A DNA stretch of 64,000 nt. Origin: Eledone cirrhosa. Its lineage: Eukaryota. Below, piece by piece: positions 1-60,520 of this stretch (positions are counted from its first letter, which is position 1; every line of letters begins with the position of its first letter). Location: the NCBI GenBank assembly GCA_964016885.1, contig OZ024757.1, positions 5,456,001 through 5,520,000 on the forward strand, written 5' to 3'. The position numbers and the translations under genes were made by a program. The notes beneath the pieces are model-generated. The model worked only from the letters and a program-made list of their open reading frames with translations. It made no database searches and was not told the origin of the DNA.

Positions 1-3000
1 ATACACATCCCATGTCTATACCAACACAGTCTTCTCTCCTACACACTACATCTGATTCCTCTTATACCTAGTTTCTCTCTCAGTTCATCCATACACATCA
101 CATGTCTATACCAACACAGTCTCTTCTCCTATACACTACATCTGATTCCTCTTATACCTAGTTTCTCTCTCAGTTCATCCATACACATCCCATGTCCATA
201 CCAACACAGTCTTCTCTCCTACACACTACATCTGATTCCTCATATACCTAGTTTCTCTCTCCATCCATACACATCACATGTCTATACCAACACAGTCTCC
301 TCTCCTACATCTGATTCCTCTTATACCTATTTTCTCTCCCAGTTCATCCATACACATCACATGTCTATACCAACACAGTCTCCTCTCCTACATCTGATTC
401 CTCTTATACCTAGTTTCTCTCTCAGTTCATCCATACACATCACATGTCTATACCAACACAGTCTCCTCTCCTACATCTGATTCCTCTTATACCTAGTTTC
501 TCTCTCAGTTCATCCATACACATCACATGTCTATACCAACACAGTCTCCTCTCCTACATCTGATTCCTCTTATACCTAGTTTCTCTCCATCCATACACAT
601 CACATGTCTATACCAACACAGTCTCCTCTCCTACATCTGATTCCTCTTATACCTAGTTTCTCTCTCCATCCATACACATCACATGTCTATACCAACACAG
701 TCTCCTCTCCTACAGCTGATTCCTCTTATACCTAGTTTCTCTCCCAGTTCATCCATACACATCACATGTCTTTACCAACACAGTCTCCTCTCCTACATCT
801 GATTCCTCTTATACCTAGTTTCTCTCTCAGTTCATCCATACACATCACATGTCTATACCAACACAGTCTCCTCTCCTACATCTGATTCCTCTTATACCTA
901 GTTTCTCTCCCAGTTCATCCATACACATCACATGTCTATACCAACACAGTCTCCTCTCCTACATCTGATTCCTCTTATACCTAGTTTCTCTCCCAGTTCA
1001 TCCATACACATCGCATGTCTATACCAACACAGTCTCCTCTCCTACATCTGATTCCTCTTATACCTAGTTTCTCTCCCAGTTCATCCATACACATCACATG
1101 TCTATACCAACACAGTCTCCTCTCCGACATCTGATTCCTCTTATACCTAGTTTCTCTCCCAGTTCATCCATACACATCACATGTCTATACCAACACAGTC
1201 TCCTCTCCTACACCTGATTCCTCTTATACCTAGTTTCTCTCCCAGTTCATCCATACACATCACATGTCTATACCAACACAGTCTCCTCTCCTACACACTA
1301 CATGTGATTCCTCTTATAACTAGTTTCTCTCCCAGTTCATCCATACACATCCCATGTCTATACCAACACAGTCTCCTCTCCTACATCTGATTCCTCTTAT
1401 ACCTAGTTTCTCTCTCAGTTCATCCATACACATCACATGTCTATACCAACACAGTCTCCTCTCCTACATCTGATTCCTCTTATACCTAGTTTCTCTCCCA
1501 GTTCATCCATACACATCACATGTCTATACCAACACAGTCTCCTCTCCTACATCTGATTCCTCTTATACCTAGTTTCTCTCTCCATCCATACACATCACAC
1601 GTCTATACCAACACAGTCTCCTCTCCTACATCTGATTCCTCTTATACCTAGTTTCTCTCTCAGTTCATCCATACACATCACATTTCTATACCAACACAGT
1701 CTCCTCTCCTACATCTGATTCCTCTTATACCTAGTTTCTCTCTCAGTTCATCCATACACATCACATGTCTATACCAACACAGTCTCCTCTCCTACATCTG
1801 ATTCCTCTTATACCTAGTTTCTCTCCCAGTTCATCCATACACATCGCATGTCTATACCAACACAGTCTCCTCTCCTACATCTGATTCCTCTTATACCTAG
1901 TTTCTCTCCCAGTTCATCCATACACATCACATGTCTATACCAACACAGTCTCCTCTCCTACATCTGATTCCTCTTATACCTAGTTTCTCTCTCAGTTCAT
2001 CCATACACATCACATGTCTATACCAACACAGTCTCCTCTCCTACACACTACATGTGATTCCTCTTATAACTAGTTTCTCTCCCAGTTCATCCATACACAT
2101 CACATGTCTATACCAACACAGTCTCCTCTCCTACATCTGATTCCTCTTATACCTAGTTTCTCTCCCAGTTCATCCATACATATCACATGTCTATACCAAC
2201 ACAGTCTCCTCTCCTACACACTACATCTGATTCCTCTTGTACCTAGTTTCTCTCTCAGTTCATCCATACACATCACATGTCTATACCAACACAGTCTCCT
2301 CTCCTACACACTACATCTGATTCCTGTCATACCTAGTTTCTCTCCCAGTTCATCCATACACATCACATGTCTATACCAACACAGTCTCCTCTCCTACACA
2401 CTACATCTGATTCCTCTTATAACTAGTTTCTCTCCCAGTTCATCCATACACATCACATGTCTATACCAACACAGTCTCCTCTCCTACATCTGATTCCTCT
2501 TATACCTAGTTTCTCTCTCCATCCATACACATCACACGTCTATACCAACACAGTCTCCTCTCCTACATCTGATTCCTCTTATACCTAGTTTCTCTCTCAG
2601 TTCATCCATACACATCACATGTCTATACCAACACAGTCTTCTCTCCTACACACTACATCTGATTCCTCTTATACCTAGTTTCTCTCTCAGTTCATCCATA
2701 CACATCACATTTCTATACCAACACAGTCTCCTCTCCTACATCTGATTCCACTTATACCTAGTTTCTCTCTAAGTTCATCCATACACATCCCATGTCTATA
2801 CCAACACAGTCTTCTCTCCTACACACTACATCTGATTCCTCTTATACCTAGTTTCTCTCTCAGTTCATCCATACACATCACATGTCTATACCAACACAGT
2901 CTCCTCTCCTACATCTGATTCCTCTTATACCTAGTTTCTCTCCCAGTTCATCCATACACATCACATGTCTATACCAACACAGTCTCCTCTCCTACATCTG

Positions 3001-6000
3001 ATTCCACTTATACCTAGTTTCTCTCTAAGTTCATCCATACACATCCCATGTCTATACCAACACAGTCTTCTCTCCTACACACTACATCTGATTCCTCTTA
3101 TACCTAGTTTCTCTCTCAGTTCATCCATACACATCACATGTCTATACCAACACAGTCTCCTCTCCTACACACTACATCTGATTCCTCTTATACCTAGTTT
3201 CTCTCTCAGTTCATCCATACACATCACATGTCTATACCAACACAGTCTCCTCTCCTACATCTGATTCCTCTTATACCTAGTTTCTCTCTCAGTTCATCCA
3301 TACACATCACATGTCTATACCAACACAGTCTCCTCTCCTACACACTACATCTGATTCTTCTTATACCTAGTTTCTCTCTCAGTTTATCCATACACATCAC
3401 ATGTCTATACCAACACAGTCTCCTCTCCTACATCTGATTCCTCTTATACCTAGTTTCTCTCTCAGTTCATCCATACACATCACATGTCTATACCAACACA
3501 GTCTCCTCTCCTACACACTACATCTGATTCCTCTTATACCTAGTTTCTCTCCCAGTTCATCCATACATATCACATGTCTATACCAACACAGTCTCCTCTC
3601 CTACACACTACATCTGATTCCTCTTGTACCTAGTTTCTCTCTCAGTTCATCCATACACATCACATGTCTATACCAACACAGTCTCCTCTCCTACACACTA
3701 CATCTGATTCCTGTCATACCTAGTTTCTCTCTCAGTTCATCCATACACATCACATGTCTATACCAACACAGTCTCCTCTCCTACACACTACATCTGATTC
3801 TTCTTATACCTAGTTTCTCTCTCAGTTTATCCATACACATCACATGTCTATACCAACACAGTCTCCTCTCCTACATCTGATTCCTCTTATACCTAGTTTC
3901 TCTCTCAGTTCATCCATACACATCACATGTCTATACCAACACAGTCTCCTCTCCTACACACTACATCTGATTCCTCTTATACCTAGTTTCTCTCCCAGTT
4001 CATCCATACATATCACATGTCTATACCAACACAGTCTCCTCTCCTACACACTACATCTGATTCCTCTTGTACCTAGTTTCTCTCTCAGTTCATCCATACA
4101 CATCACATGTCTATACCAACACAGTCTCCTCTCCTACACACTACATCTGATTCCTGTCATACCTAGTTTCTCTCTCAGTTCATCCATACACATCCCATGT
4201 CTATACCAACACAGTCTTCTCTCCTACACACTACATCTGATTCCTCATATACCTAGTTTCTCTCTCCATCCATACACATCACATGTCTGTACCAACACAG
4301 TCTCCTCTCCGACATCTGATTCCTCTTATACCTAGTTTCTCTCTCAGTTCATCCATACACATCACATGTCTATACCAACACAGTCTCCTCTCCTACATCT
4401 GATTCCTCTTATACCTAGTTTCTCTCTCAGTTCATCCATACACATCACATGTCTTTACCAACACAGTCTCCTCTCCTACATCTGATTCCTCTTATACCTA
4501 TTTTCTCTCCCAGTTCATCCATACACATCACATGTCTATACCAACACAGTCTCCTCTCCTACATCTGATTCCTCTTATACCTAGTTTCTCTCTCAGTTCA
4601 TCCATACACATCACATGTCTATACCAACACAGTCTCCTCTCCTACATCTGATTCCTCTTATACCTAGTTTCTCTCTCAGTTCATCCATACACATCACATG
4701 TCTATACCAACACAGTCTCCTCTCCTACATCTGATTCCTCTTATACCTAGTTTCTCTCCCAGTTCATCCATACACATCGCATGTCTATACCAACACAGTC
4801 TCCTCTCCTACATCTGATTCCTCTTATACCTAGTTTCTCTCCCAGTTCATCCATACACATCACATGTCTATACCAACACAGTCTCCTCTCCTACATCTGA
4901 TTCCTCTTATACCTAGTTTCTCTCCCAGTTCATCCATACACATCACATGTCTATACCAACACAGTCTCCTCTCCTACACCTGATTCCTCTTATACCTAGT
5001 TTCTCTCCCAGTTCATCCATACACATCACATGTCTATACCAACACAGTCTCCTCTCCTACACACTACATGTGATTCCTCTTATAACTAGTTTCTCTCCCA
5101 GTTCATCCATACACATCCCATGTCTATACCAACACAGTCTCCTCTCCTACATCTGATTCCTCTTATACCTAGTTTCTCTCTCAGTTCATCCATACACATC
5201 ACATGTCTATACCAACACAGTCTCCTCTCCTACATCTGATTCCTCTTATACCTAGTTTCTCTCCCAGTTCATCCATACACATCACATGTCTATACCAACA
5301 CAGTCTCCTCTCCTACAACTGATTCCTCTTATACCTAGTTTCTCTCCCAGTTCATCCATACATATCACATGTCTATACCAACACAGTCTCCTCTCCTACA
5401 CACTACATCTGATTCCTCTTGTACCTAGTTTCTCTCTCAGTTCATCCATACACATCACATGTCTATACCAACACAGTCTCCTCTCCTACACACTACATCT
5501 GATTCCTGTCATACCTAGTTTCTCTCCCAGTTCATCCATACACATCACATGTCTATACCAACACAGTCTCCTCTCCTACACACTACATGTGATTCCTCTT
5601 ATAACTAGTTTCTCTCCCAGTTCATCCATACACATCACATGTCTATACCAACACAGTCTCCTCTCCTACATCTGATTCCTCTTATACCTAGTTTCTCTCT
5701 CCATCCATACACATCACACGTCTATACCAACACAGTCTCCTCTCCTACATCTGATTCCTCTTATACCTAGTTTCTCTCTCAGTTCATCCATACACATCAC
5801 ATTTCTATACCAACACAGTCTCCTCTCCTACATATAATTCCACTTATACCTAGTTTCTCTCTCAGTTCATCCATACACATCCCATGTCTATACCAACACA
5901 GTCTTCTCTCCTACACACTACATCTGATTCCTCTTATACCTAGTTTCTCTCTCAGTTCATCCATACACATCACATGTCTATACCAACACAGTCTCCTCTC

Positions 6001-7775
6001 CTACATCTGATTCCTCTTATACCTAGTTTCTCTCTCAGTTCATCCATACACATCACATGTCTATACCAACACAGTCTCTTCTCCTATACACTACATCTGA
6101 TTCCTCTTATACCTAGTTTCTCTCTCAGTTCATCCATACACATCCCATGTCTATACCAACACAGTCTTCTCTCCTACACACTACATCTGATTCCTCATAT
6201 ACCTAGTTTCTCTCTCCATCCATACACATCACATGTCTATACCAACACAGTCTCCTCTCCTACATCTGATTCCTCTTATACCTAGTTTCTCTCTCAGTTC
6301 ATCCATACACATCACATGTCTATACCAACACAGTCTCCTCTCCGACATCTGATTCCTCTTATACCTAGTTTCTCTCTCAGTTCATCCATACACATCACAT
6401 GTCTATACCAACACAGTCTCCTCTCCTACATCTGATTCCTCTTATACCTAGTTTCTCTCTCAGTTCATCCATACACATCACATGTCTTTACCAACACAGT
6501 CTCCTCTCCTACATCTGATTCCTCTTATACCTATTTTCTCTCCCAGTTCATCCATACACATCACATGTCTATACCAACACAGTCTCCTCTCCTACATCTG
6601 ATTCCTCTTATACCTAGTTTCTCTCTCAGTTCATCCATACACATCACGTGTCTATACCAACACAGTCTCCTCTCCTACATCTGATTCCTCTTATACCTAG
6701 TTTCTCTCTCAGTTCATCCATACACATCACATGTCTATACCAACACAGTCTCCTCTCCTACATCTGATTCCTCTTATACCTAGTTTCTCTCCCAGTTCAT
6801 CCATACACATCACATGTCTATACCAACACAGTCTCCTCTCCTACATCTGATTCCTCTTATACCTAGTTTCTCTCCATCCATACACATCACATGTCTATAC
6901 CAACACAGTCTCCTCTCCTACATCTGATTCCTCTTATACCTAGTTTCTCTCTCCATCCATACACATCACATGTCTATACCAACACAGTCTCCTCTCCTAC
7001 ATCTGATTCCTCTTATACCTAGTTTCTCTCCCAGTTCATCCATACACATCACATGTCTATACCAACACAGTCTCCTCTCCTACATCTGATTCCTCTTATA
7101 CCTAGTTTCTCTCCCAGTTCATCCATACATATCACATGTCTATACCAACACAGTCTCCTCTCCTACACACTACATCTGATTCCTCTTATACCTAGTTTCT
7201 CTCCCAGTTCATCCATACACATCACATGTCTATACCAACACAGTCTCCTCTCCTACATCTGATTTTTCTTATACCTAGTTTCTCTCCCAGTTCATCCATA
7301 CACATCACATGTCTATACCAACACAGTCTCCTCTCCTACATCTGATTCCTCTTATACCTAGTTTCTCTCCCAGTTCATCCATACACATCACATGTCTATA
7401 CCAACACAGTCTCCTCTCCTACATCTGATTCCTCTTATACCTAGTTTCTCTCCCAGTTCATCCATACACATCACATGTCTATACCAACACAGTCTCCTCT
7501 CCTACATCTGATTCCTCTTATACCTAGTTTCTCTCCCAGTTCATCCATACACATCACATGTCTATACCAACACAGTCTCCTCTCCTACATCTGATTCCTC
7601 TTATACCTAGTTTCTCTCTCAGTTCATCCATACACATCCCATGTCTATACTAACAGTCTCCTCTCCTACATCTGATTCCTCTTATACCTAGTTTCTCTCC
7701 CAGTCCATCCATACACATCACATGTCTATACCAACACAGTCTCCTCTCCTACATCTGATTCCTCTTATACCTAGT
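1..7775 (-). repeat. Tandem satellite of 83/90-bp units (about 90 copies) derived from RTE LINE coding sequence, inside a Bre1 intron
   Basis: Unit catccatacacatcacatgtctataccaacacagtctcctctcctaca(cactaca)tctgattcctcttatacctagtttctctc(t/c)cagtt. The minus strand of the 90-mer reads ELREKLGIRGIRCSV*ERRLCWYRHVMCMD, matching RTE copies here (e.g. 9156-9246). The array runs off the left edge. Confidence 0.95.
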
Positions 7776-7845
7776 CTCTCTCTTAATTCGTTTATGCTTT
7801 GTCGTTCTTGTATATTACTATTACACATCCTTTTGAGCATCCATC
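7740..7845 (-). mobile_element. RTE LINE remnant continuous with the last satellite unit
   Basis: Minus strand reads RMCNSNIQERQSINELRERLGIRG, like RTE copies at 10840-10910 and 15660-15730. Confidence 0.8.
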
Positions 7846-11784: not shown

Positions 11785-11957
11785 CGCATCAAGTCGAACC
11801 AGATCCACAAGTTACTCCGCGAAGAGAAGGACAGTTCGGCAGAGCAGGTAGCTACCCTCCATGGTCAGGTGCAGGCTCAGAATCAGGTGGTACGCAAACT
11901 TGAAGAGAAGGAGCGTATCCTGCAGAATAACCTCGCTACTGTTGAGAAAGAACTCAG
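11785..11957 (+). CDS. Bre1: Bre1 internal exon
   Basis: gtgcag|CGC...CTCAG|gtgtgt; 173 nt, phase 0/2; [15 protein letters not shown]...[23 protein letters not shown]. Confidence 0.95.
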
Positions 11958-12008: not shown

Positions 12009-12662
12009 TACATGACCACTTTACAGAGTGTACTGGGTGCTTTTTGTTGTGACACCTTCATGACCACTTTACAGAGTGTACTAAGTGCTTTTTGTTGTGA
12101 CACCTACATGACCACTTTACAGTGTGTACTGGGTATTTTTTGTCATGACACCTACATGACCACTTTACAGTGGACTGGCTACTTTTTGTTGTGACACCTA
12201 CATTACCACTTTACAGTGTGGACTAGGTACTTTTTGTTGTGACACCTACATGACCACTTTACAGTGTGGACTGGGTACTTGTTGTGACACCTACATGACC
12301 ACTTTACACTGTGTACTGGGTACTTTTTGTTGTGACACCTACATGACCACTGTACTGTGTGTACTGGGTACTTTTTGTCATGACACCTACATGACCACTT
12401 TACAGTGTGGACTGGGTACATTTTGTTGAGATACCTACATGACCACTTTACAGTGTGTACTGGGTACTTTTTGTTGAGATACCTACATGACTACTTTACA
12501 GTGTATACTGGGTACTTGTTGTGACACCTACATGACTACTTTTCGGAGTGTACTGGGTACTTTTTGTTGTGACACCTACATGACCACTTTACAGTGTGGA
12601 CTGGGTACTTTTTGTTGTGTCACCTACATGATTACTTTATAGTGTGGACTGGGTACTTTTTG
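12009..12662. repeat. 48-bp minisatellite (about 13-14 copies) derived from RTE 3' UTR
   Basis: Unit catgaccactttacagtgtggactgggtactttttgttgtgacaccta; a monomer occurs in RTE 3' UTRs at 23871-23922 and 15200-15246. Confidence 0.9.
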
Positions 12663-12721
12663 TAATGTGAACATAACTTTACAGAATAGGATGATCGTTT
12701 CTTTCCTTTTCTGCTTATCAG

Positions 12722-12899
12722 CCTCCGTCAACAAGCTATGGAAATGCACAAACGAAAAGCAGTTGAGAGTGCCCAGGCAGCAGCTGATTTGAAGTTACGC
12801 CTTGATAAATACCAGTCACAATTGAAAGAGGCCCAGGTTGCTGTTGCTGAAAAGACTGCTCACCTAGAGAAGGAGTCATTCAAGTTTAAAAGGATGCAG
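12722..12899 (+). CDS. Bre1: Bre1 internal exon
   Basis: ttatcag|C CTC...CAG|gtaggc; 178 nt, phase 2/0, compatible with the previous exon; LRQQAMEMHKRKAVESAQAAADLK...EKESFKFKRMQ. Confidence 0.95.
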
Positions 12900-12943
12900 G
12901 TAGGCCTTATTTCTTCAACTGCTCACATGTCTTGAAGCTGATT

Positions 12944-14769
12944 CAGATCCACAAACATATAATATATACAAAGCAGGTAATACACACATCTAGGCCCACA
13001 TACAACACAGAGACAGGTTATACATACATCTAGGACTACATACAACACACAAGCAGGTAATACACACATCTAGGACCACATACAACACATAACCAGGTAA
13101 TACATACATCTAGGACCACATACAACACACAAGCAGGTAATACATACATCTAGGACCACATACAACACAGAAACAGGTAATACACACATCTAGGACCACA
13201 TACAACACACAAGCAGGTAATACACACATCTAGGACCACGTACAACACACAACCAGGTAATACACACATCTAGGATCACATACAACACACAAGCAGGTAA
13301 TACATACATCTAGGACCACATACAACACACAAGCAGGTAATACACACATCTAGGACCACATACAACACACAAGCAGGTAATACACACATCTAGGACCACA
13401 TACAACACACAAGCAGGTAATACATACATCTAGGACTACATACAACACACAAGCAGGTAATACATACATCTAGGACCACATACAACACACAAGCAGGTAA
13501 TACATACATCTAGGACTACATACAACACACAAGCAGGTAATACATACATCTAGGACCACATACAACACACAAGCAGGTAATACATACATCTAGGACCACA
13601 TACAACACACAAGCAGGTAATACATACATCTAGGACTACATACAACACATAACCAGGTAATACACACATCTAGGACCACATATAACACACAGGCAGGTAA
13701 TACACACATCTAGGACCACATACAACACATAACCAGGTAATACATACATCTAGGACTACATACAACACATAACCAGGTAATACACACATCTAGGACCACA
13801 TATAACACACAGGCATGTAATACACACATCTAGGACCACATACAACACATAATCAGGTAATACATACATCTAGGACCACATACAACACACAAGCAGGTAA
13901 TACATAGATCTAGGACCACATACAACACACAAGCAGGTAATACATAGATCTAGGACCACATACAACACACAAGCAGGTAATACATACATCTAGGACCACA
14001 TAAAACACACAGGCAGGTAATACATACATCTAGGGCCACATACAATACACAAGCAGGTAATATATACATCTAGGACCACATACAACACACAAGCAGGTAA
14101 TACATACATCTAGGACCACATACAACACAGAAACAGGTAATACATACATCTAGGACCACATACAACACACAAGCAGATAATACACACATCTATGACCACA
14201 TACGACACACAAGCAGGTAATACATACATCTAGGACCACATACAACACACAACCAGGTAATACATACATCTAGGACCACATACAACACACAGGCAGGTAA
14301 TACATACATCTAGGACCACATACAACACACAAGCAGGTAATACACACATCTAGGACCACATACAACACATAACCAGGTAATACACACATCTAGGACCACA
14401 TACAACACACAAGCAGGTAATACACACATCTAGGACCACATACAACACACAAGCAGGTAATACACACATCTAGGACCACATATAACACACAAGCAGGTAA
14501 TACATACATCTTTGACCACATACAACACACAATCAGGTAATACATACATCTAGGACCACATACAACACACAAGCAGGTAATACATACATCTAGGACCACA
14601 TACAACACACAAGCAGGTAATACATACATCTAGGACCACATACAACATACAAGCAGGTAATACATACATCTAGGACCACATACAACACACAAGCAGGTAA
14701 TACATACATCTAGGACCACATACAACACACAGGCAGGTAATACATACATCTTTGACCACATACAACACA
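12944..14769. repeat. 40-bp minisatellite (about 45 copies) flanked by 111-bp direct repeats
   Basis: Unit aagcaggtaatacatacatctaggaccacatacaacacac; flanks 12833-12943 and 14770-14880 differ at 2 positions. Confidence 0.95.
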
Positions 14770-14997
14770 CCAGGTTGCTGTTGCTGAAAAGACTGCTCAC
14801 CTAGAAAAGGAGTCATTCAAGTTTAAAAGGATGCAGGTAGGCCTTATTTCATCAACTGCTCACATGTCTTGAAGCTGATTGGGGAAGAGGTATTGGTTTC
14901 TGATTTAGGCACAAAACCAGCAATTTGGGGAGATGGGGTAAGTTGATTAACCCTTTAGTGTTCAAAACGGCCAGAATCGGCCAAAATTATTTCCCAT

Positions 14998-16157
14998 TTC
15001 ATCATTTCATCATCATCTTCGTTTAACGTCCATCTTCCACGCTAGCATGGGTTAGACGGGAGTTGTCCCACTTGAGGCAAGGTTGGTCGTCTCGCTCGTA
15101 TAGGACTATCTGGCAGGTTTTCTACGGCTGGATGCCCTTCCTAACACCAACCACGTTTACAGTGTGGAACTGGGAACTTATTACTGTGTTACCTACACGG
15201 CCACATTACAGCGTGGACTGTGTGTTTTTTGTCATGACACCTACACGATCTCGATCTCATTATCTCATTTATTTGGGCTGGATGTTGTAGTACCAACTTA
15301 ATAGAGAGAGGGTGGTGTTGGTGGGAGTGGGAGGATAGGGTAGGGGTAGTGGATTGGGGTGTATATTTGGTTAATTAGGTGCCTACTGACTGTATGTTTC
15401 GCTTTGGACATAGGCAAGGCGGGTCTTCTGTATTACTGTGTAGCGCCAAAACTCCCGGTCCAGTGATATTGTCTTAGAGAGGTGCAAGTGTGTAAGGTAG
15501 GAATTTATCGGATCATCCCAGGTTTTTCTGGGTCTACCTACTCCGTAACTACCATCAATTTTGATCGCCCTGCACTTTTTTATCCAGCTGTCGTCTTTCA
15601 TGCGCATCACGTGACCATACCAACGTAGTTTTCTCTCAAGTAAACAGCATCTGATCCCTCTTATTCCTAATTTCTCACTTAGTTAATTTATGCTTTGCCG
15701 TTCACGTATATTACTATTACACATCCAGCGGAGCATGCAAGCTTCGTTCCTTTCCAGTCTACGCAGGTCCTCTGCACTCAATGCCCAAGTCTCACTGCCA
15801 TTTAGCATTGCTGTTCGTATGCAGGCATCATACAATTTGCCTTTCATTTTTAGAGAGAAACCTTTTGTGGCCAACAGCGGTTTCAGCTCTCTGAACTCTT
15901 TCCATCCCGTTCTGACTCTGGCTACTGTACTTTCAGAGCACCCTCCACCACTGTTGATTTTGTCACCCAGGTAACGGAAGGTGTCTCCTATTTCTATAGA
16001 ATCATCTTGGCAATAGAACGAGCTAGTATCCTGTGGGCACTTGCTACTTATTGCACCTGAGCATCGGCTACATATAAAGTCTACATTCTTAGATAGTTTA
16101 CCTGTGATCCCACTACATCTTTTATGTTATGTACCCATAATTTGCATTTGGGACATA
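14998..16157 (-). mobile_element. 5'-truncated RTE LINE inserted in a piggyBac-type MITE
   Basis: KLYDACIRTAMLNGSETW, GVGRPRKTW, 3' UTR and (cat)n tail. The MITE start ttaaccctttag at ~14947 resumes after 16157. Confidence 0.88.
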
Positions 16158-16369
16158 TTTGTTCAAATCAGTCAAAACTGGCCAACATGACTCACACTAA
16201 AATATTGTTCTAAAAATAAACCATACCGTCATCAATTCGAGATTACTGAGGTGTTAAGCCTTTAGTGTGAAAATTAACACTTAATATAGTGAAACTACTT
16301 CAAAACAACGCATGTTTTGTAATGTTGAAAGTACAACAGATTTTATCTGTGTATGAACATTTAAAATAG

Positions 16370-19300
16370 ATGGTCTTATTTGATAGAACCAAAGCTGGTT
16401 TTGGCTGGGTTGGTAACTAAAGGGTTAAATAGGAACTCTTTAAAATGGGTGGTTTTATTTGATAGAACCAGAGCTGGTTTTGGCTGGGTTGGTAACTAAA
16501 GGGTTTAATAGGAAATCTTTAAAATGCCAAATGGGTGGTTTTATTTGATCGAACCAGAGTTGATTTTGGCTGGGTTGGTAACTAAAGGGTTTAATAGGAA
16601 CTCTTTAAAATCGGAAATGGGTGGTTTTATTTGATAGAACCAGAGCTGGTTTTAGCTGGGTTGGTAACTAAAGGGTTAAATAGGAACTCTTTAAACAGGG
16701 TGGTCTTATTTGATAGAACCAGAGCTGGGTTGGTAACTAAAGGGGTAAAATAGGAACTCTTTAAAATGGGTAGTTTTATTTGATAGAACCAGAGCTGGTT
16801 TAGGCTGGGTTGGTAACTAACGGGTTTAATAGGAACTCTTTAAAATGGGTGGTCTTGTTTGATAGAACCAGAGCTGGGTTGGTAACTACAGGAGTAAATA
16901 GGAACTCTTTAAAATGGGTGGTTTTATTTGATAGAACCAGAGCTGGTTTTGACTGGGTTGGTAACTAAAGGGTTAAATAGGAACTCTTTAAAATGGGTGG
17001 TTTTATTAAATAAAACCAGAGCTGGTTTTGGCTGGGTTGGTGACTAAAGGGTTAAATAGGAACTCTTTAAAATGGGAAATGGGTGGTCTTATTTGATAGA
17101 ACCAGAGCTGGTTTTGGCTGGGTTGGTAACTAAAGGGTTAAATAGGAACTCTTTAAAATGGGTGGTTTTCTTAAATAAAACCAGAGCTGGTTTTGGCTGG
17201 GTTGGTAACTAAAGGGTTAAATAGGAACTCTTTAAAATGGGAAATGGGTGGTCTTACTTGATAGAACCAAAGCTGATTTTGGCTAGGCTGGTAACTAAAC
17301 GGTTAAATAGGAACTCTTTAAAATGGGTGGTTTTATTTGCTAGAACCAGAGCTGGTTTTAGCCAAGTTGGTAACTAAAGGGTTAAATAGGAACTCTTTAA
17401 AAAGGGTGGTCTTATTTGATAGAACCAGAGCTGGGTTGGTAACTAAAGGGGTAAATAGGAACTCTTTAAAATGGGTAGTTTTATTTGATAGAACCAGAGC
17501 TGGTTTTGGCTGGGTTGGTAACTAAAGGGTTAAATAGGAACTCTTTAAAATGGGTGGTCTTGTTTGATAGAACCAGAGCTGGTTTTGGCTGGGTTGGTAA
17601 CTAAAGGGTTAAAGAGGAACTCTTTAAAATGGGAAATGGGTGATACTATTTGATAGAACCAGAGCTGATTTTGGCTGGGTTGGTAACTAAAGGGTTAAAT
17701 AGGAACTCATTAAAATGCGAAATGGGTGGTTTTATTTGATAGAACCAGGGCTGGTTTTGGCTGGGTTGGTAACTAAAGGGTTTAATAGGAACTCTTTAAA
17801 ATCTTAAATGGGTGGTTTTATTTGATAGAACTAGAGCTGGTTTTAGCTTGGTTGGTAACTAAAGGGTTAAATAGGAACTCTTTAAACAGGGTGGTCTTGT
17901 TTGATAGAACCAGAGCTGGGTTGGTAACTAAAGGGTTAAATAGGAACTCTTTAAAATGGGCGGTTTTATTAAATAAAACCAGAGCTGGTTTTGGCTGGGT
18001 TGGTGACTAAAGGGTTAAAGAGGAACTCTTTAAAATGGGAAATGGGTGATCCTATTTGATAGAACCAGAGCTGGTTTGGGCTGGGTTGGTGACGAAAGGG
18101 TTAAATAGGAACTCTTTAAAATGGGAAATGGGTGGTCTTATTTGATAGAACCAGAGCTGGTTTTGGCTGGGTTGGTAACTAAAGGGTTTAATAGGAACTC
18201 TTTAAAATGGGTGGTTTTATTTGATAGAATCAAAGCTGGTTTGGGCTGGGTTGGTAACTAAAGGGTTTAATAGGAACTCTTTAAAATGGGTGGTTTTATT
18301 TGATCGAACCAGAGCTGGTTTTGGCTGGGTTGGTAACTAAAGGGTTAAAGAGGAACTCTTTAAAATGGGAAATGGGTGATACTATTTGATAGAACCAGAG
18401 CTGGTTTGGGCTAGGTTGGTGACGAAAGGGTTAAATAGGAACTCTTTAAAACGGGAAATGGGTGGTTTTATTTGATAGAACCAGAGCTGATTTTGGCTGG
18501 GTTGGTAACAAGGGTTTAATAGGAACTCTTTAAAATGGGTGGTCTTATTTGATAGAACCAGAGCTGGGCTGGTAACTAAAGGGTTAAATAGGAACTCTTT
18601 AAAAAGGGAAATGGGTGATCTTATTTGATAGAACCAGAGCTGGTTTTGGCTGGGTTGGTAACTAAAGGGTTAAAGAGGAACTCTTTAAAATGGGAAATGG
18701 GTGATACTATTTGATAGAACCAGAGCTGGTTTTGACTGGGTTGGTGAAGAAAGGGTTAAATAGGAACTCTTTAAAATGGGAAATGGGTGGTCTTATTTGA
18801 TAGAACCAGAGCTGGTTTTGGCTGGGTTGGTAACTAAAGGGTTTAATAGGAACTCTTTAAAATGGGTGGTTTTATTTGATAGAATCAGAGCTGGTTTGGG
18901 CTGGGTTGGTAACTAAAGGGTTTAATAGGAACTCTTTAAAATGGGTGGTCTTATTTGATCGAACCAGAGCTGGTTTTGGCTGGGTTGGTAACTAAAGGGT
19001 TAAAGAGGAACTCTTTAAAATGGGAAATGGGTGATACTATTTGATAGAACCAGAGCTGGTTTGGGCTAGGTTGGTGACGAAAGGGTTAAATAGGAACTCT
19101 TTAAAATGGGAAATGGGTGGTTTTATTTGATAGAACCAGAGCTGATTTTGGCTGGGTTGGTAACAAGGGTTTAATAGGAACTCTTTAAAATGGGTGGTCT
19201 TATTTGATAGAACCAGAGCTGGGCTGGTAACTAAAGGGTTAAATAGGAACTCTTTAAAAAGGGAAATGGGTGATCTTATTTGATAGAACCAGAGCTGGTT

Positions 19301-20303
19301 TTGGCTGGGTTGGTAACTAAAGGGTTAAAGAGGAACTCTTTAAAATGGGAAATGGGTGATACTATTTGATAGAACCAGAGCTGGGTTGGTGAAGAAAGGG
19401 TTTAATAGGAACTCTTTAAAATCGGAAATGGGTGGTCTTATTTGGTAGAACCAGAGCTGGTTTTAGCTGGATTGGTAACTAAAGGGTTAAATAGGAACTC
19501 TTTAAAATCGGAAATGGGTGTCCTTATTTGATAGAACCAGAGCTGGTTTTGGCTGGGTTGGTAACTAAAGGGTTTAATAGGAACTCTTTAAAATCGGAAA
19601 TGGGTGGTCTTATTTGGTAGAACCAGAGCTGGTTTTAGCTGGATTGGTAACTAAAGGGTTAAATAGGAACTCTTTAAAATCGGAAATGGGTGTCCTTATT
19701 TGATAGTACCAGAGCTGGTTTTGGCTGGGTTGGTAACTAAAGGGTTTAATAGGAACTCTTTAAAATCGGAAATGGGTGGTCTTATTTGGTAGAACCAGAG
19801 CTGGTTTTAGCTGGATTGGTAACTAAAGGGTTAAATAGGAACTCTTTAAAATCGGAAATGGGTGTCCTTATTTGATAGAACCAGAGCTGGTTTTGGCTGG
19901 GTTGGTAACTAAAGGGTTTAATAGGAACTCTTTAAAATCGGAAATGGGTGGTCTTATTTGGTAGAACCAGAGCTGGTTTTAGCTGGATTGGTAACTAAAG
20001 GGTTAAATAGGAACTCTTTAAAATCGGAAATGGGTGTCCTTATTTGATAGTACCAGAGCTGGTTTTGGCTGGGTTGGTAACTAAAGGGTTTAATAGGAAC
20101 TCTTTAAAATGGGAAATGGGTGGTTTTATTTGATAGAACCAGAGCTGATTTTGGCTGGGTTGGTAACTAAAGGATTAAATAGGAACTCTTTAAAATGGGT
20201 GGTTTTATTTGATAGAACCAGAGCTGGTTTTGGCTGGGTTGGTAACTAAAGGGTTCAATAGGAACTCTTTAAAATCGGAAATGGGTGGTTTTATTTGATA
20301 GAA
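16370..20303. repeat. Satellite of 69/79/86-bp units (about 49 copies) derived from a piggyBac-type MITE terminus
   Basis: Unit atttgatagaaccagagctggttttggctgggttggtaactaaagggttaaataggaactctttaaaatgggtggtttt; a monomer lies at 37894-37982. Confidence 0.93.
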
Positions 20304-20380
20304 GAAGTGGTGGATTTCGGCAAGCTTTTATATAATGAGTTAAAGTAGTTGTAAATCAAATTATATTGATTATCTCGCAG

Positions 20381-20482
20381 GAGGAGGTAGCAAGCCTTCG
20401 ACGAAAACTCGAACGTTCAAAGAAAATAGAAATGGCTGGTGCTGCTGATGAGGTTCTAATGGAGGAAATTAAAGAGTACAAG
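20381..20482 (+). CDS. Bre1: Bre1 penultimate exon
   Basis: tcgcag|GAG...AAG|gtaagt; 102 nt; EEVASLRRKLERSKKIEMAGAADEVLMEEIKEYK. Not in the ORF track. Confidence 0.95.
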
Positions 20483-20561: not shown

Positions 20562-20903
20562 TTAACCTTTCAGCATTTAAACTGACCATATTTGGCCAGA
20601 ATTCTCTCACCTCTTTCTGTTCAAATCAGCTCTAACTGACCACTCATACTGATGTTAAGGTATTGTTCTCAAAATATATAACATCAAGGTAAAGCCTTTA
20701 CTGTGAAAATACAATAGTATATATAGAGTAATGTAAATGTTATGTGAGATATTATGTGAGGTAAAGCCTTTACTGTGAAAATACAATAGTATATACAGAG
20801 TAATGTAAATGTTATGTGAGATATTATGTGAGGTAAAGCCTTTACTGTGAAAATACAATAGTATATACAGAGTAATGTAAATGTTATGTGAGGTAAAGCC
20901 TTT
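20562..20903 (-). mobile_element. piggyBac-type MITE with a tandemly triplicated subterminal segment
   Basis: Starts ttaacctttcagcattt and is the reverse complement of MITE 37674-37903; aggtaaagcctttactgtgaaaatac repeats with ~60-72-bp period. Confidence 0.7.
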
Positions 20904-47044: not shown

Positions 47045-47590
47045 TAAAGACAAATCCACCTCATGGACGAGAATGCAAGGGCTCCTCCTCTTTGTTTCGG
47101 CCGCGGATGGCTAACACAACCCCATCCCCGCTCCACACCGCTCCCACCCTCCAAACGCAATCCCAAACTTCAGAGTTGGTACCATGAATGTAGGCACCGT
47201 AAAGGGTGGCTCTAACAAGGTTGTAGAAATGCTTGAACGTAAGGAGGTCGATGTTTGTTGTATTCAAGAGACCAGGTGGAGGGGTGGGTCTGCTAGATTC
47301 ATCGTGGGTAAAGAACGATGCAATAAGCTTTTCTGTGTGGGAAATGACAATGGGCTGGGTATACACATACCACCCAACCACCCCACCGCAAAGTGGTCGT
47401 GGAGGCGCCGCGGCAAAAAAAGCACCCAGCCCACACTGTAAAGCTGACGTGGAGGTGCCACGGAAAAAAAAAGCACCCAGCACTCACTGCAAACGGGGTT
47501 GGCGTCAGGAAGGGCACCCAGCTGTAGAAACCAATCCAGAATCAGCTCCCATCCCACCCTTGCAAGCATGGAAAAGCGGACGTATGATGA
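47045..47590 (+). mobile_element. Internally deleted RTE: 5' ORF start joined to 3' UTR
   Basis: 47045-47360 duplicates 45001-45321, then jumps to the RTE 3' UTR ending ggacgtatgatga. Confidence 0.8.
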
Positions 47591-48390
47591 AGTTGATATA
47601 TATATATATATATATATTGGTATATATATTCACATATATATATACACACATATATATCAGTGTACATATATATATACATATATATATATAAATAAATGAA
47701 TATTTATTCAATTTAAAGCGCCAATTATCTATATATAACAAGATATGAATTTTTCTAGGGATGGGGAAATTTTCAGTTTGTTTTTATATTTTCACTTCAT
47801 TTTTTACTTTCTATTTAATACAGTCTTTGATCCAATATAATCCTGACAGTATTTGAACCAGTTTACCTCATATATATGTATGCACACACAACACTCAAGT
47901 TTCGCCATCTACTGCCATTTTATTCATATTTATTGTTTAATTAACTCTGGTCTAATTCATCAACTATTGTTAATTATATTATTACGTAGATTTCTTATAA
48001 AATCTAGTGCATATATACGTGTATATATACAGGGAGACACTGTAATAGATGTAAAGAGAGTGGGAGATAGAGTTATAGAAGTAAAGAGAGGAAGAGAAAT
48101 AAGCGGTAGATAGAGTAATAGATGTAAAGAGAGGGTTAGAACGTTCAACTTGACAGTCAGTACCAATGTTCAGCATGGTAGCCAGTACATATGCCAACTA
48201 CCCAACCGGCCAGCCAGCCGTATTTGCGGTTGACTGGCCAGTTGGGCGGTTGGTATATGGAACGTTCAACTACGCAGTCAGTACCAAAGTTCAACATTGT
48301 AGCCTGTGCATATACCGATCGCCGCGCCCTCTTTGCTCTTTTTCAATGACCTGGAACTAAGTAAAAAGAGTAGGAGATAACTCGACAAGA

Positions 48391-48475
48391 GCGGAGAGGG
48401 TGAGATTCGAACCATGTAAAGTCGTTGGCTCCTGAAGTTCGTAAGCGGGGCTGCTACTGACTGAGCAACGCCGGC
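48391..48475 (-). pseudogene. tRNA-like sequence (pseudo-tRNA or SINE head)
   Basis: Minus strand gccggcgTTGCTCAGTCAGTAG...GGTTCGAATCtcaccctctccgc with A/B boxes and a T5 run ~22 nt downstream; the acceptor stem does not pair. Confidence 0.45.
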
Positions 48476-49479
48476 AGCAAGGCAAATCGCGCATAAAATA
48501 ACACTTATATCGACAAAATAAAACAACAATTTCAATGTTGCACTCTTGTTTGTTGTTCTTTTATTTTACGTAAACATTTCGCTGCTCTAGCCTCTTATTT
48601 CCTATTAGATTACACTTAATTCCATTAAACATTCATTCTTAGTCTCGTGGTAAACTATTTCATCTTTATTTATATCGCTGTTACAGCCTTTTATTTCTAC
48701 ATCTTTTACCTATAGCCACTGTTACGCCGGTAGTATAAGTAGCTTTATAACAAGAAACGATGATATAACTCCACAAAATGTCTTCTTGAGCAAGATATTT
48801 CACTTCATATTGCTCCAGTACACCGAGTTACACATAGACAGATACATACATACACATATATATGTACACAGATAGAAATAAGAGGTAGATGTAAAGAGAG
48901 GGAGATAGAGTAAAAGGTGTAAAGAGAGTGGGAGAAGGACGAGTTAGATAGTGTAAAAGATTTAAAGAGAGGGTGAGAGTGTGACACACATTTATCTGTC
49001 TATCTCTCTCTATTTTAACACCGGTCGTTATAATTAGTTTTATAACACCGCTATATTACCGACATGAAAGAGGTAAATAATTATTTCTTAAATGTTTAGA
49101 ACATGTTTCTCTTGTCTTCTTAAATGTATAGAACATGTTTCTTATTTATATTCTTAACATAGCTAGGACCTTATCTCATTTACTGGTCTCTACTTTTAGG
49201 ACTTTGCTGGTCCCATGTGCCCTCCATCAAGACACACTCGTCCCTTCTCTTAGCCCCCGTACTAATTACTACATATACGTATATATATTTATTTTAAGAA
49301 ACCTTAATGACAAATAATATAAAGTGTTTGTAAAGTGGGGAAGAGTAGTTTTACGGTGGGGTTGTTATATAGATATCGTTTTTCCATAAAGACTCTTCTT
49401 CAGAAAATTTTAAGATTCCTGATTCTAGAGCCCCCACACTCTCGGGATGAATCGCTGTCGATTGAAATTCTTTATATAT

Positions 49480-51529: not shown

Positions 51530-52150
51530 ATGAGCTTTGGCCCGGGCATACATCCCCTCAATTTTGAAACCGTCTGGGTTGTCCAGAATTGATGGGAAAA
51601 GACTTCACGGTCAAGAGGCAGGTGCCTTACCTGGGACGTCACAGTTAGTGATTCTTTTGCTTCTTCCCACATTCTGGATGCAGCGGTAAGGGCGAGAGCT
51701 ACAGCATCCGCAGCTGAATGGAACAAAATCCTAAAATACCGTGTTCTGTCAGCTAACTACAATATCCAGCCTGGGGGAGTCGGGCTACTGACAGCGAGCT
51801 TCTTATCTTCACTGGTGGCTCACCAAACAGAGGTAACTGTTGATTATCGTGAGGGCACTTGGTTATTCCAGCACCTCAGCCTCGCCATTACTCCAGGTAA
51901 CGCTGTGATCGTGCTGGCCTGCCACAAATATTATTAGAGAGGCTTCCCAGTGCTCCTCGCTATATTGCTATCTTTTGCTCTGGTAGCGGCACGTTTTCCA
52001 TTCTTTCGTCTGCATATTGTTCTATGGTCTAAGATGTGGGTATTACCTGCTTGTGTATTTTCCCCTTTCCTTCGTATATATTATATTTGTTTGTGTTTTC
52101 CTTCTAATTATACAAATGAGTTAAACTGTGTTGTTAATAAATAAATAAAA
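51530..52150 (+). mobile_element. CRE-like non-LTR retrotransposon remnant: restriction-like endonuclease C-terminus, 3' UTR and A-rich tail
   Basis: IPSILKPSGLSRIDGKR, a frameshift, then RGRCLTWDVTVSDSFASSH...AAEWNKILKY...WLFQHLSLAITPGNA...stop at 51937; tail aataaataaataaaa. Not in the ORF track. Confidence 0.72.
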
Positions 52151-52436
52151 CGTTATACTTGTTTTACCCTCCCATTTTTAATTCACTGAACAATATCATG
52201 AGTGTGTGTTTGTGTAAATGTATGTCTGTGAGGGTGTATTTTTATAAGGGGTTGTTCTTCTCTATTTCTTTCTCTCTCCTTGTCTGGAAGAAATCAACTG
52301 TTGAAACCTGATCAGTGAAGGGCTCCACCCTTGCAAGCATGGAAAAGCGGACGTATGATGAAGTTGATATCTATATATATATACACATACATATATGTAC
52401 ATATATATATATACACACACATATATATCAGTGTAC

Positions 52437-52488
<52 letters not shown>

Positions 52489-53580
52489 GAATATTTATTC
52501 AATTTAAAGCGCCAATTATCTATATATAACAAGATATGAATTTTTCTAGGGATGGGGAAATTTTCAGTTTGTTTTTATATTTTCACTTCATTTTTTACTT
52601 TCTATTTAATACAGTCTTTGATCCAATATAATCCTGACAGTATTTGAACCAGTTTACCTCATATATATGTATGCACACACAACACTTAAGTTTCGCCATC
52701 TACTGCCATTTCATTCATATTTATTGTTTAATTAACTCTGGTCTAATTCATCAACTATTGTTAATTATATTATTACGTAGATTTCTTATAAAATCTAGTG
52801 CATATATACGTGTATATATAGAGGGAGACACTGTAATAGATGTAAAGAGAGTGGGAGATAGTTATAGAGTTTATTTTTACGTTTTGTATTGGGGAAAAAT
52901 TTTCCATTTAATTAATTTCATCATTTTGTTGTATATACACACATGCATATATACAATTGTTATATATATATATAAAATCTCATATAAGATGGGAGTTATT
53001 AGAATACCTTGCAGTATTCCTTTTTGTTCTATGCTCTCTGAGTTGAAATCCCGCCGAGGTCAACTTTGCCTTTCATCCCTTGGAGGTTGATAAAAAAAGT
53101 ACCAGTGGAATACTGATGTGAATTCTTCCTCTCTTTATTTTTCTCACTTTATCTTTTTATGAATAAAAGTACCAGTCAAATACTGGGTTCCTCTCTTCTC
53201 TGTGTTTTTGCTGCTTTTTCCCTGTCTATCTTTCTGGAAGAATTTGCTATTTTTAGAACTGGAGGGGTGGGATTTGTTAGGGATTAAGGTTAGAAAATGA
53301 AAGATATATATGTATATATATGTATAATATGTGTGTTGATGAAATTATGTTGGTGGTGGTGGTGGTAAAAATTGTTTTGCAAGATTTATCTGGAAAAATC
53401 TGTTGAATTATATTGTTTTGTTTTCACTTTGATTTATTATATAATTATGGTTGGTTGGTTGTCTCTCTCGTGGTTACTGGTATTGTCTCTCTGTTCTCTC
53501 GTTTGACAAACGACTTTATAAAAGCTGACTCAATATTGTTCAATGTTTTACTGCTACTTTAAGAGACGGGTGGGCAAAGG

Positions 53581-57596: not shown

Positions 57597-57754
57597 TTAT
57601 TTTCGTTGTTTGATTCGTTTTTTTTTTTTCATGACTTAAATCTTTTATTACCTTTAATAATGTGTTTTGGTTTAATATGAACAGTTATATAACATTAATA
57701 ACGTTATTTATTCAAATCTGAATAAAGTACTAGCATATCTATTGAACGTATGAA

Positions 57755-58224
57755 TCTAAACTATAATAAAAGGAGGAGCGTGGGACTGCGTACGGTTTAT
57801 AATTGTTTATCCCATTAGTAAAATAAGTTGGATTACTTTGAATAAATAATGAATGAATATTACATAATTTATCTACTAAATTTCGTGGCTGTTGATTAAA
57901 TATATTTTGTTTGTTTAAAGATTCACTTCTTTAAAATTTCTGAAATGTCAACACTTCCGGTTGGTCATCACTTCAATAAACATACTAATTTTCTTCTAAT
58001 GCAATGTATATATAATATCGTCTTTTTTAATGTATCATGGATTACGTTACTTATTACATAAGACAGTGTAACACAGTCTTCGATCAATTTCTGTGTATTA
58101 TATATTGTCAATTATGATTTGATTTGATGTATCATATCTACATGTATATATATACTTGTGTATAATATCAATATACACACTACACATGCTAGCAGAAAAC
58201 CACCTGAAAGTGGTTTTCTGCTAG
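57755..58224 (+). mobile_element. Non-autonomous Helitron, 470 bp
   Basis: a|TCTAAACTATAATAAA...CTAG|t with no TSD; 15-bp terminal hairpin; empty site visible in the paralogous unit near 58490-58520. Confidence 0.8.
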
Positions 58225-59157
58225 TTCATATAACGGAAGTTGTTTCTGAATGTATTAAATTATGTAGGGGACTTTCAAGTCATGACACCGGTGTCAACTA
58301 GACAGTGGAAAGTTATCTACAGTGGCTCCATCGTTACAACTTATATCCACATTTATGTTTAACAAAATACTTTACATTTCCATTTCTTAAATATGTTATT
58401 ACCTTTAAAAATGTGTTTTGTTTTAATATGAACAGTTATGTAAAATTAATAATGTTATTTATACAAATCTGAATAAAGATTTAAAATATTGATTGAAGGT
58501 GTGAAGTAATATAACGGAAGTTGTTTCTGAATGTATTAAATTATGTGGGGGACTTTTAAGTCATGAGACCGGTGTCTACTAGACGTTGAAATATTACCAT
58601 TTATATCAGCTCCATTGTTACAACTTAAACCTCATCTAATTTTATCTTTATTGGTCTTGACAACTAAAGTACGTATTATTTCCTTTTCCACCACAACACA
58701 AACATTGTGAACTTTTCTATCTGAAGTGAAATATCTTGTTTATTACAACACTTACACACATATTTCTATACACACACACACACGTCTATTTCTCTCTCTC
58801 ATACCTACACACTGTATGTCTGTATATATATATATATGTATATATATTAATCTTCATCTTTTGAAATTATGGATATTAATTCTCTTGTCACTTGAACTGT
58901 CCTCAATAACAAGAACCTTAACTATAGAAGTCTTATTCGTCTGTTTTATGAGCTGAGGATTTTATTGTGAATAGAGCTTCTCTCACCTTAACAAAAATAA
59001 TAAAATACACACACACACACACAGACATATGTATATTAGCACTTGCTTTTTCTTCTCCCAAGATCAGTCTTACGCTTTCATACATCTTATTACTTTACCA
59101 ACTGAATGCTACATTTCTTAATATATGAGTGGAAGTAGTGAGATTCCTTTATGAAAT

Positions 59158-60066
59158 ATGTCTGAATATAGCTGTGAGATTTGCAGGAAAACTTTCTCTT
59201 CAAAACTGAAACTATCCTCACACGAGAAAATACACAGAGATAAACCCCTCCGCTGTGAAATATGTGGGAAATCTTTCACTAATAATTCTGCTCTTGTCAT
59301 CCACATACGGAGTCACACAGGAGAAAAACCCTTCAACTGTGAAATATGTGAGAAATCTTTTACTAATAATTCTGCTCTTGTCATCCACATACGGAGTCAC
59401 ACAGGAGAAAAACCCTTCAACTGTGAAATATGTGGTAAATCTTTTATTGATAATTCTAATCTTGTTGTCCACATACGGAGTGACACTGGAGAAAAACCCT
59501 TCCATTGTGAAATATGTGAGAAATATTTTACTAATAATTCTGCTCTTGTTATCCATATACGGAGGCACACTGGAGAAAAACCCTTCCACTGTGAGATATG
59601 TGAGAAATCTTTCATAAATAATTCTGCTCTTGTCATTCACAAAAGAACACACACTGGTGAAAAACCCTTCCATTGTGAAATATGTGGTAAATCTTTTTCT
59701 CAGAGTTCTCAACTTGAACATCACAAAAGAATACATACTGGTGAAAAACTCTTCCATTGTGAAATATGTGGGAAATCTTTTTCTCGTAGTTCTCATCTTG
59801 AACTTCACAAAAGAGTACACACAGGTGAAAAAACTTATTCATGTGAAATATGTGGTAAATCTTTTTCTCAGGGGTCAAATCTTGTAAAACACAAAAGAAT
59901 ACATACTGGTGAAAAACCTTATTCACGTGAAATATGTGGGAAATCTTTTTCTCAGAGTTCAAATCTTGTAAAACACAAAAGAATACATACTGGTGAAAAA
60001 CCTTATTCATGTGAAATGAGGTATATCTTTCACTCGGCATTCGTCAATGTTTGTTCACCTACGTAG
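59158..60066 (+). CDS. Single-exon C2H2 zinc-finger protein (10 finger units, 2 broken, plus a frameshifted 11th); possibly decaying
   Basis: Repeated CEICGKSF...H.R.H-TGEKP; finger 4 has H>D and finger 10 has C>R; no KRAB or other effector domain. Confidence 0.8.
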   Translation: MSEYSCEICRKTFSSKLKLSSHEKIHRDKPLRCEICGKSFTNNSALVIHIRSHTGEKPFNCEICEKSFTNNSALVIHIRSHTGEKPFNCEICGKSFIDNSNLVVHIRSDTGEKPFHCEICEKYFTNNSALVIHIRRHTGEKPFHCEICEKSFINNSALVIHKRTHTGEKPFHCEICGKSFSQSSQLEHHKRIHTGEKLFHCEICGKSFSRSSHLELHKRVHTGEKTYSCEICGKSFSQGSNLVKHKRIHTGEKPYSREICGKSFSQSSNLVKHKRIHTGEKPYSCEMRYIFHSAFVNVCSPT

Positions 60067-60520
60067 TCAACACTTGCGGTAAACACCATCACTGTGAAAT
60101 ATGAAAAACACAAATATCTAGACACACTTTGAAAGTCAGAATATAAAATGTGAAGCTTGAAAAATCTTAAACAACTCAACATATATGTTGTGTGTGTGTG
60201 TATATATATATATATTTTATTATTTTTATATTTTTAATACATTACTCAAAGGGAAGGAGTATACTGACATATATCAAAGATTACCACAATAACTAGGGAG
60301 CGGAGGACAAGATATGCTGGACATTGCTACTGAGGGTAGGATGAGCTGGCTACTGTGGTGGATACCTAAACATTGTAAGACACTAGTGGGATGACTGAGG
60401 TTGACCTACATAGATCAGATGTCCAGCTGGAGATTAATGATCTCAGGAATGCCATGGAAGATCGTGACATCTAAAAAAGAAGAGTAGAATTGTTCTGGCC
60501 AATCCACCTGACCTAATAAA

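Follow-up and report, generated by a model that had tools for sequence, protein, structure and literature searches.

The window analysed here, a stretch of 64,000 nucleotides from Eledone cirrhosa that contains no N, carries part of Bre1 together with several families of dispersed and tandem repeats (Table 1). One coding exon of the gene, used as a 61-aa query, matches an Octopus Bre1 record with 100% identity across 98% of the query. Its final 67 nt and its donor fall inside a 111-bp direct repeat (E 1e-52 in the self-comparison of the window), the copies of which mismatch only at 12869 (G/A) and 12914 (T/A). Between the copies lies an insert of 1826 bp (12944–14769), in which a 6-nt filler and a lead-in of 21 nt precede the 45 units of 40 bp. 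A first-pass annotation, made from the letters alone, had already noticed this recurrence around a 1.83-kb insert, and the self-comparison bears it out. Evidence from outside the window was drawn from contigs of four public runs, from protein relatives and from published papers.

Table 1. Features of the Bre1 insertion, its putative parent element and other repeats (window coordinates).
Feature	Position	Strand	Remark
Bre1 (RNF20/40-type E3 ligase) coding exon	12722–12899	+	protein identity and spliced contig
Left copy of the 111-bp duplication	12833–12943	+	exon end, donor and 44 nt of intron; window self-comparison
Filler CAGATC, 6 nt	12944–12949	+	not in the retroelement family
Lead-in	12950–12970	−	piece of a CRE-like 3′ UTR (short form); stops about 55 nt ahead of the remnant tail
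Minisatellite, 45 x 40 bp (45.0 copies)	12971–14770	−	unit a segment of the CRE-like 3′ UTR
Right copy of the 111-bp duplication	14770–14880	+	contains an in-frame 63-nt AG..GT piece, 14774–14836
Possible local template for the insert's first 11 nt	11800–11810	+	exact 11-mer in the previous Bre1 exon
Bre1 intron array, 83 bp	1–7783		
Bre1 intron array, 48 bp	12009–12663		
Bre1 intron array, 86 bp	16364–20303		
Bre1 intron array, 72 bp	20687–20892		
5′-truncated CRE-like RLE retrotransposon remnant	51560–51937	+	frameshifted endonuclease C-terminus with the PD motif deleted
3′ UTR of the remnant	51938–52152	+	(AAAT)n-like tail at its end
Monomeric relative of unit and lead-in	52025–52095		about 20 extra nt, so not the direct donor
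547-bp direct repeat (93.6%)	47554–48079 and 52325–52868		encloses 4.25 kb of mixed repeats including the CRE-like remnant

A spliced contig of 3214 nt (run X4, record 17) leads from the previous exon into 12722–12899 and then from 12899 directly to 20381. Run X4 is called RNA-like here solely because this one contig is spliced across two introns. Since splicing still goes from 12899 to 20381, the effect of the insertion on Bre1 is likely neutral. With its AG and GT, the right copy has an open frame for an extra exon of 21 codons. Its use as such was rejected, as it is skipped by the single spliced contig, of a kind that drops rare forms. The copying of exon ends that was proposed for the insertion holds for the DNA of this one locus, and the second copy is unused in the only spliced contig. 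The same contig has A at 12869, which is the base of the right copy in the window; the G/A difference is therefore also an allele of the working exon. As a separate observation, the insert plus right copy contain 43 instances of CAGGTA, a donor-like motif in the Bre1 sense orientation, and none of these sites is used in the one spliced contig.

The array contains 29 distinct units with a mean pairwise difference of 6.6%, and no higher-order periodicity was found in it at lags 1–9. Its end reads ...CAACACAC, and the next unit would start AAG-CAGGT. At the right junction, in-register sharing is limited to 1 nt (C, 14770), while CAGGT (5 nt) matches only after a 3-nt skip; the CCAGGT microhomology originally proposed for this junction lies 3 nt out of register. 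On the left side, the filler CAGATC matches neither the remnant nor the family contigs listed, all of which align from 12950 or a later position. Filler plus the next 5 nt equal 11800–11810, an 11-mer with no further occurrence within the window. This match lies 1.1 kb upstream. By chance, about 0.002 such matches would be expected in 2 kb and 0.03 in the entire window; the match is suggestive of a template for the filler but was noticed post hoc. The putative internal switch between filler and lead-in involves 5 nt of microhomology (CACAA). An Rfam gathering search returned 0 matches and ARAGORN 0 genes.

Comparison within the window leads to a retroelement. Region 51593–51937 corresponds to the C-terminal endonuclease region of an RT+RLE family, with 40% identity to P0003 and an hhalign probability of 98.9 against alignment A1. 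P0003 and A1 carry RVT_1 and a CxC..H / RH / PD..D pattern, whereas the remnant retains only the C-terminus; the arrangement of an RT with a restriction-like endonuclease C-terminal to it in a single ORF is thus seen through the match of the remnant to P0003 and A1. No Pfam family was assigned to the remnant and none of the listed relatives carries a clade name; CRE-like is the label that we take to fit the motif pattern. The unit matches the reverse complement of 52025–52056 over 32 nt (91%, E 3e-7), the only match in the array-masked window, and the lead-in matches 52070–52095 co-linearly (E 1e-3 to 4e-3). Aligned jointly, unit and lead-in score 59.5 compared with at most 43.5 for the best unrelated windows. 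The first-pass annotation had placed both, in this order, on the reverse complement of about 52015–52097 and had derived them from the 3′ UTR of the CRE-like element. The order is borne out, and the derivation is now firmer through contigs from other loci in which the lead-in is joined directly to one unit (X1 records 7 and 8, X2 record 14, X4 record 18). These contigs imply that a monomer of the short-form 3′ UTR exists, and the loose-end lines at 13007 resemble remnant sequence toward its ORF. Judged by sequence similarity, unit and lead-in go back to the 3′ UTR of a CRE-like RLE retrotransposon. The insert stops about 55 nt short of the position of the remnant's own tail. It has no A-, (AAT)n- or (TGA)n-tail at its 3′ end and no tail-like motif in its last 60 nt, and no (AAT)n target was found near either junction.

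Contigs of four of the seven public runs (X1, X2, X4 and X5, with X3, X6 and X7 left out) were aligned to 12664–13010 and compared among the 24 of 1546 contig pieces and 24 of 68 loose-end rows listed. X1 and X2 come from one sample, S1, possibly the source of the assembly. Two contigs, X1 record 4 (12864–12979) and X2 record 13 (12870–12979), cross the left junction with 0 differences. No contig spanning the right junction is among the 24 of 1546 pieces listed, and X2 record 9 runs unbroken over 12686–12868, across the expected branch point of that junction. Sample S1 holds three versions of 12864–12899 (G/A, G/T and A/A at 12869/12894), and the X1 depth across the duplicated segment changes from 4.8 to 11.9 and then to 6.0 plus 6.9. 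Versions and depth fit a real duplication if S1 is one animal; a filled plus an empty allele with polymorphism may be an alternative. Another version of the exon end departs into different sequence at 12944–12945 (X1 record 5 and X2 record 12, with 32–33 loose letters) and may represent the right copy or an empty allele. The RAD run X5 gave no coverage of the unique part of the locus.

The same runs show that the 40-bp unit is a very large repeat family of the octopus genome. It is present in 697 contigs of X1 and 685 of X2 and reaches a summed contig depth of 750,000–800,000 compared with 5–14 at single-copy sites, a summed depth being no copy number. The widespread occurrence that had been supposed for the unit is therewith substantiated. 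It is tandem beyond this locus as well, as run contigs hold tandem joints with variants missing from the array; among the distinct joint forms listed, six of seven have a period of 40 and one a period of 38. The commonest local variants among those listed, 12985 T (depth 88,601) and 12997 T (32,727, both summed in X1), lie far above the yield of one locus and must therefore be family-wide. The lead-in has a depth of 212–342, about 2,000–3,500 times lower than the unit, again as summed depth and not copy number. At least eight contigs carry lead-in sequence at other loci, seven from 12950–12956 (to 13007) and one from 12962. Of the eight listed, four extend by 27–456 letters into sequence that is not array, one by 3 loose letters, and three end at 13007; none enters a second unit, the latter three ending where that would be decided. 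A 35-nt unit pattern had 0 matches in the metagenome contigs and 0 in the genome contigs searched. In X4, unit-bearing contigs (12971–13010) have a summed depth of 18,596, about 170 times the 108 of the Bre1 contig; judged from depth in this RNA-like run, the unit may be abundantly transcribed.

Taken together, the structure is real: a young insertion of a retroelement-derived minisatellite that carries a long target duplication. It is young because the divergence between the duplicated copies is no greater than that between alleles. As to its origin, we give an even chance to the reading that a stretch of the abundant minisatellite family was copied once into the Bre1 intron by repair, the 111-bp duplication being a by-product. 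Repair synthesis with template switching would have extended a 3′ end at 12943 by the short filler, possibly from 11800–11810, and would then have switched through CACAA to a donor carrying the 3′ UTR lead-in and several units. Rejoining would have occurred at 12833, upstream of the exit point, on 1 nt of in-register homology (5 nt with a 3-nt slip), and array length was probably altered later by slippage or unequal exchange. Repair capture is favoured by the lack of a tail and of an (AAT)n target and by the stop about 55 nt short of the remnant's tail. In support of it we also count the non-family filler with its 11-nt upstream match, as well as a second duplication-flanked segment in the window (47554/52325). 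Against it, a donor with lead-in plus array is not among the 24 of 1546 pieces listed, the in-register microhomology is only 1 nt, and the X2 contig crosses the expected branch point of the right junction unbroken, although short joints can be dropped. Moreover, the 11-nt match, 1.1 kb off, is farther than the 200 bp cited for rice in the available part of PMC7407515.

That a multi-unit stretch was captured is suggested by the family-wide local variants and by unit divergence, which at 6.6% pairwise exceeds the 1.8% between the duplicated copies (P=0.02 for at most 2/111 at 6.6%). The contrast in divergence is weak, as the 95% interval of 2/111 reaches 6.4% and selection acts on the exonic portion of copy 1, which lowers the divergence of the copies. 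Minisatellite units can also mutate faster. An unlikely alternative is that the same one-off repair caught only a monomeric 3′ UTR fragment of about 60–100 nt and that the array grew in place later. Monomeric contigs of lead-in plus one unit do exist, the array starts precisely in its natural 3′ UTR context, and the 83-, 48-, 86- and 72-bp arrays of the gene match monomeric repeats, two of them (83 and 72 bp) retaining the parent's end. On the other hand, unit diversity (24 variants) exceeds the age implied by the duplication, and the family-wide variants together with the prevailing 40-bp period of the listed joint forms fit a single origin of the unit better.

Slightly less likely still is a retrotransposition in trans, in which an array-bearing RNA was inserted by a LINE, either CRE-like or of the abundant RTE type, with the second nick 111 bp away, so that the minisatellite would be mobile. 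The anatomy does fit a target-site duplication with a sharp element 3′ side and a 5′ end truncated inside the array, and unit-bearing contigs are abundant in the RNA-like run. Target duplications made by Rte-1 of C. elegans measure about 200 bp. Long duplications are likewise described in the accessible sections of PMC9977147 for R9 of rotifers (126 bp) and Dualen of Chlamydomonas (Dualen-4b, median 900 bp), as is a mobile satellite, MSAT-11. The insert itself, however, has no tail and no element 3′ end and begins with a filler, and the lead-in depth implies that most units are untied to the lead-in end. RTE duplications, according to the accessible text of PMC6007223, are mostly 7–15 bp, a figure that it cites, its own search having stopped at 49 bp. 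In the window, seven RTE-like fragments were checked over 400 bp of flank, and none has a long flanking repeat other than microsatellite.

As a proxy for the CRE-like partner, an alignment of 26 relatives was used to retrieve the best 80 of at least 535 confirmed metagenome loci, of which 62 extend to the C-terminus and 20 are flanked by sufficient sequence; these are non-octopus elements, and flanks of different copies may be joined in the contigs that carry them. An A or (AAT)n end within 220 nt of the ORF is present in 18 of the 20, and (AAT)n lies upstream in 13 of the 20. The longest flank repeat near the ends measures 63 bp, so that none of the 20 reaches 100 bp, and such repeats are mostly microsatellite, mainly (AAT)n. 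Two longer repeats lie outside the distance limits and were set aside as dispersed repeats: one of 161 bp (79%, L045), more than 2.2 kb away from the ORF at either side, and one of 81 bp (75%, L080), 2.3 kb upstream. Published CRE elements make duplications of varying size (PMC12278014) and generally end in poly-A (PMC3636483), as far as the available sections of both papers go. Compared with a non-autonomous CRE or RTE derivative in those features for which comparisons were run, the insert falls outside both groups. The partner's 3′ end and tail are not kept, target and duplication differ from the (AAT)n context and the repeats of at most 63 bp seen in the proxy relatives, and a shared short-repeat tail such as (TGA)n, expected of an RTE-mobilised element, is absent. 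The metagenome elements themselves (L002, L008, L025, L026, L029, L030, L036, L045, L054, L055 and others) have 3′ UTRs that are short and contain a small inverted repeat ahead of the A/(AAT)n tail, and (AAT)n often stands at their 5′ flank, which suggests that they target (AAT)n microsatellites.

The boldest reading, that the CRE-3′-UTR-derived minisatellite spreads as a tail-less transcribed mobile unit and duplicates about 100 bp of target with each insertion, is improbable. The non-autonomous element typically duplicating about 110 bp that the first-pass annotation had envisaged fits poorly with an insert devoid of a tail or element 3′ end and with the short flank repeats of the 20 non-octopus loci. 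None of the eight listed lead-in contigs runs on into a second unit, three of them ending undecided, and the other arrays of the window show no long flanking repeat. Were the boldest reading true, introns would be sown with surplus exon ends and splice donors by hundreds of arrays, and dispersal by borrowed retrotransposition would make exon-fragment duplications. If the long duplication is confined to the Bre1 locus, it is an ordinary repair scar. That the right copy is an assembly artefact, through false duplication or a haplotype join, with a true allele that has the array and no duplication, is very improbable: the right junction is absent among the listed contigs, X2 record 9 is unbroken and the A of copy 2 at 12869, being the base of another sample's spliced contig, is a working-exon allele, but the window has no N and resolves long arrays with diverged units, as long reads do, the three S1 versions exceed one diploid locus if S1 is one animal, the X1 depths point the same way, and short joints into very deep repeats are probably often dropped from such contigs.

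How satellites arrive at new loci is an open question, and the young Bre1 insertion, which keeps both junctions, the context of the parent element and a long duplication, offers a clean case for weighing repair capture against retrotransposition. In the available sections of the papers cited here, satellites from retrotransposon 3′ UTRs are documented by PisTR-A (Ogre), the common cetacean satellite (L1) and HinfI (chicken CR1) (PMC9659126). As in these, the unit at the Bre1 locus is a 3′ non-coding segment that is a monomer in the element and was amplified into arrays; the parent differs, being a CRE-like RLE element of an octopus. Our literature search, which missed most subscription papers, found no CRE-like-derived satellite in octopus and, more generally, no retroelement-derived minisatellite there. 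In Drosophila simulans and D. mauritiana, new euchromatic clusters of the Rsp-like satellite show microhomology at a junction and duplicate 32 bp of target, for which circular DNA, template switching or microhomology-mediated repair is invoked as the cause (available text of PMC7403614). Both cases combine a satellite at a new site, extra junction sequence and a target duplication. The Rsp-like duplication, however, measures 32 bp in a target that is another satellite (1.688), whereas at Bre1 111 bp of unique exon and intron are duplicated at the one locus known. In rice, repair-made insertions with non-tandem duplications are reviewed in PMC7407515, of which a part was available.

R9 and Dualen-4b share with the Bre1 insertion the long direct target repeats around a retroelement-derived insert, but their inserts are pieces of the encoding element, whereas the Bre1 insert lacks a 3′ end and a tail. 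MSAT-11_cRei, a mobile satellite with a monomer of 1.9 kb whose movement was directly observed, resembles the Bre1 array as a tandem array at new sites without transposon features; in the sections available, no target duplication is given for it (PMC9977147), and the movement of the Bre1 array is deduced from one site. The available parts of PMC2887409, PMC13295347, PMC11288735 and PMC4640811 held no long-duplication data, and a search for templated sequence insertion with target duplication found no papers. By analogy, the Bre1 insertion is best read as working like the known satellite captures by repair, that is, as an event of a known kind.

Both ingredients of the proposed repair capture recur in the window. 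The four other intronic arrays of Bre1 each match a monomeric dispersed repeat elsewhere in the window, which makes repeat-derived minisatellites routine in this gene; those of 83 and 72 bp retain the parent's sequence at an end. Three of the four stop within about 60–90 nt of the acceptor of the next exon, and no long repeat borders any of the three whose flanks both lie in the window. The longest resolved arrays, with diverged units, measure 3.9 and over 7.7 kb. Five arrays in this Bre1 gene suggest that minisatellites arising from dispersed repeats are making octopus introns longer, a process of which the literature search, with most subscription papers outside it, found no description for octopus. 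Among the local direct repeats checked, only 47554/52325 shares the anatomy of the Bre1 insertion. It is older and has no minisatellite at its ends, and its right junction shows 5 nt of in-register microhomology with a dispersed repeat (52270–52329, also at 61557–61616). Repeat-derived arrays and duplication-flanked captures thus occur in the window independently of each other.

Other candidates for a long target duplication were rejected: 11564/11668 reads as a tandem duplication, 57626/58377 as a tandem duplication plus a later insertion, and 44232/44639 and 45004/47047 are taken for 5′ portions of an RTE-type element that occur repeatedly. Another dispersed element is present in two copies, at 57750–58226 and 60516–60977; the first interrupts a tandem duplication of about 270 bp and ends in a hairpin plus CTAGT, a pattern that we presume to be Helitron-like. 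At 48330–48480 (−) a tRNA-like sequence, possibly the head of a SINE, was seen by eye and is uncalled by ARAGORN and Rfam. An open frame at 59155–60066 (+) encodes about ten tandem C2H2 zinc fingers.
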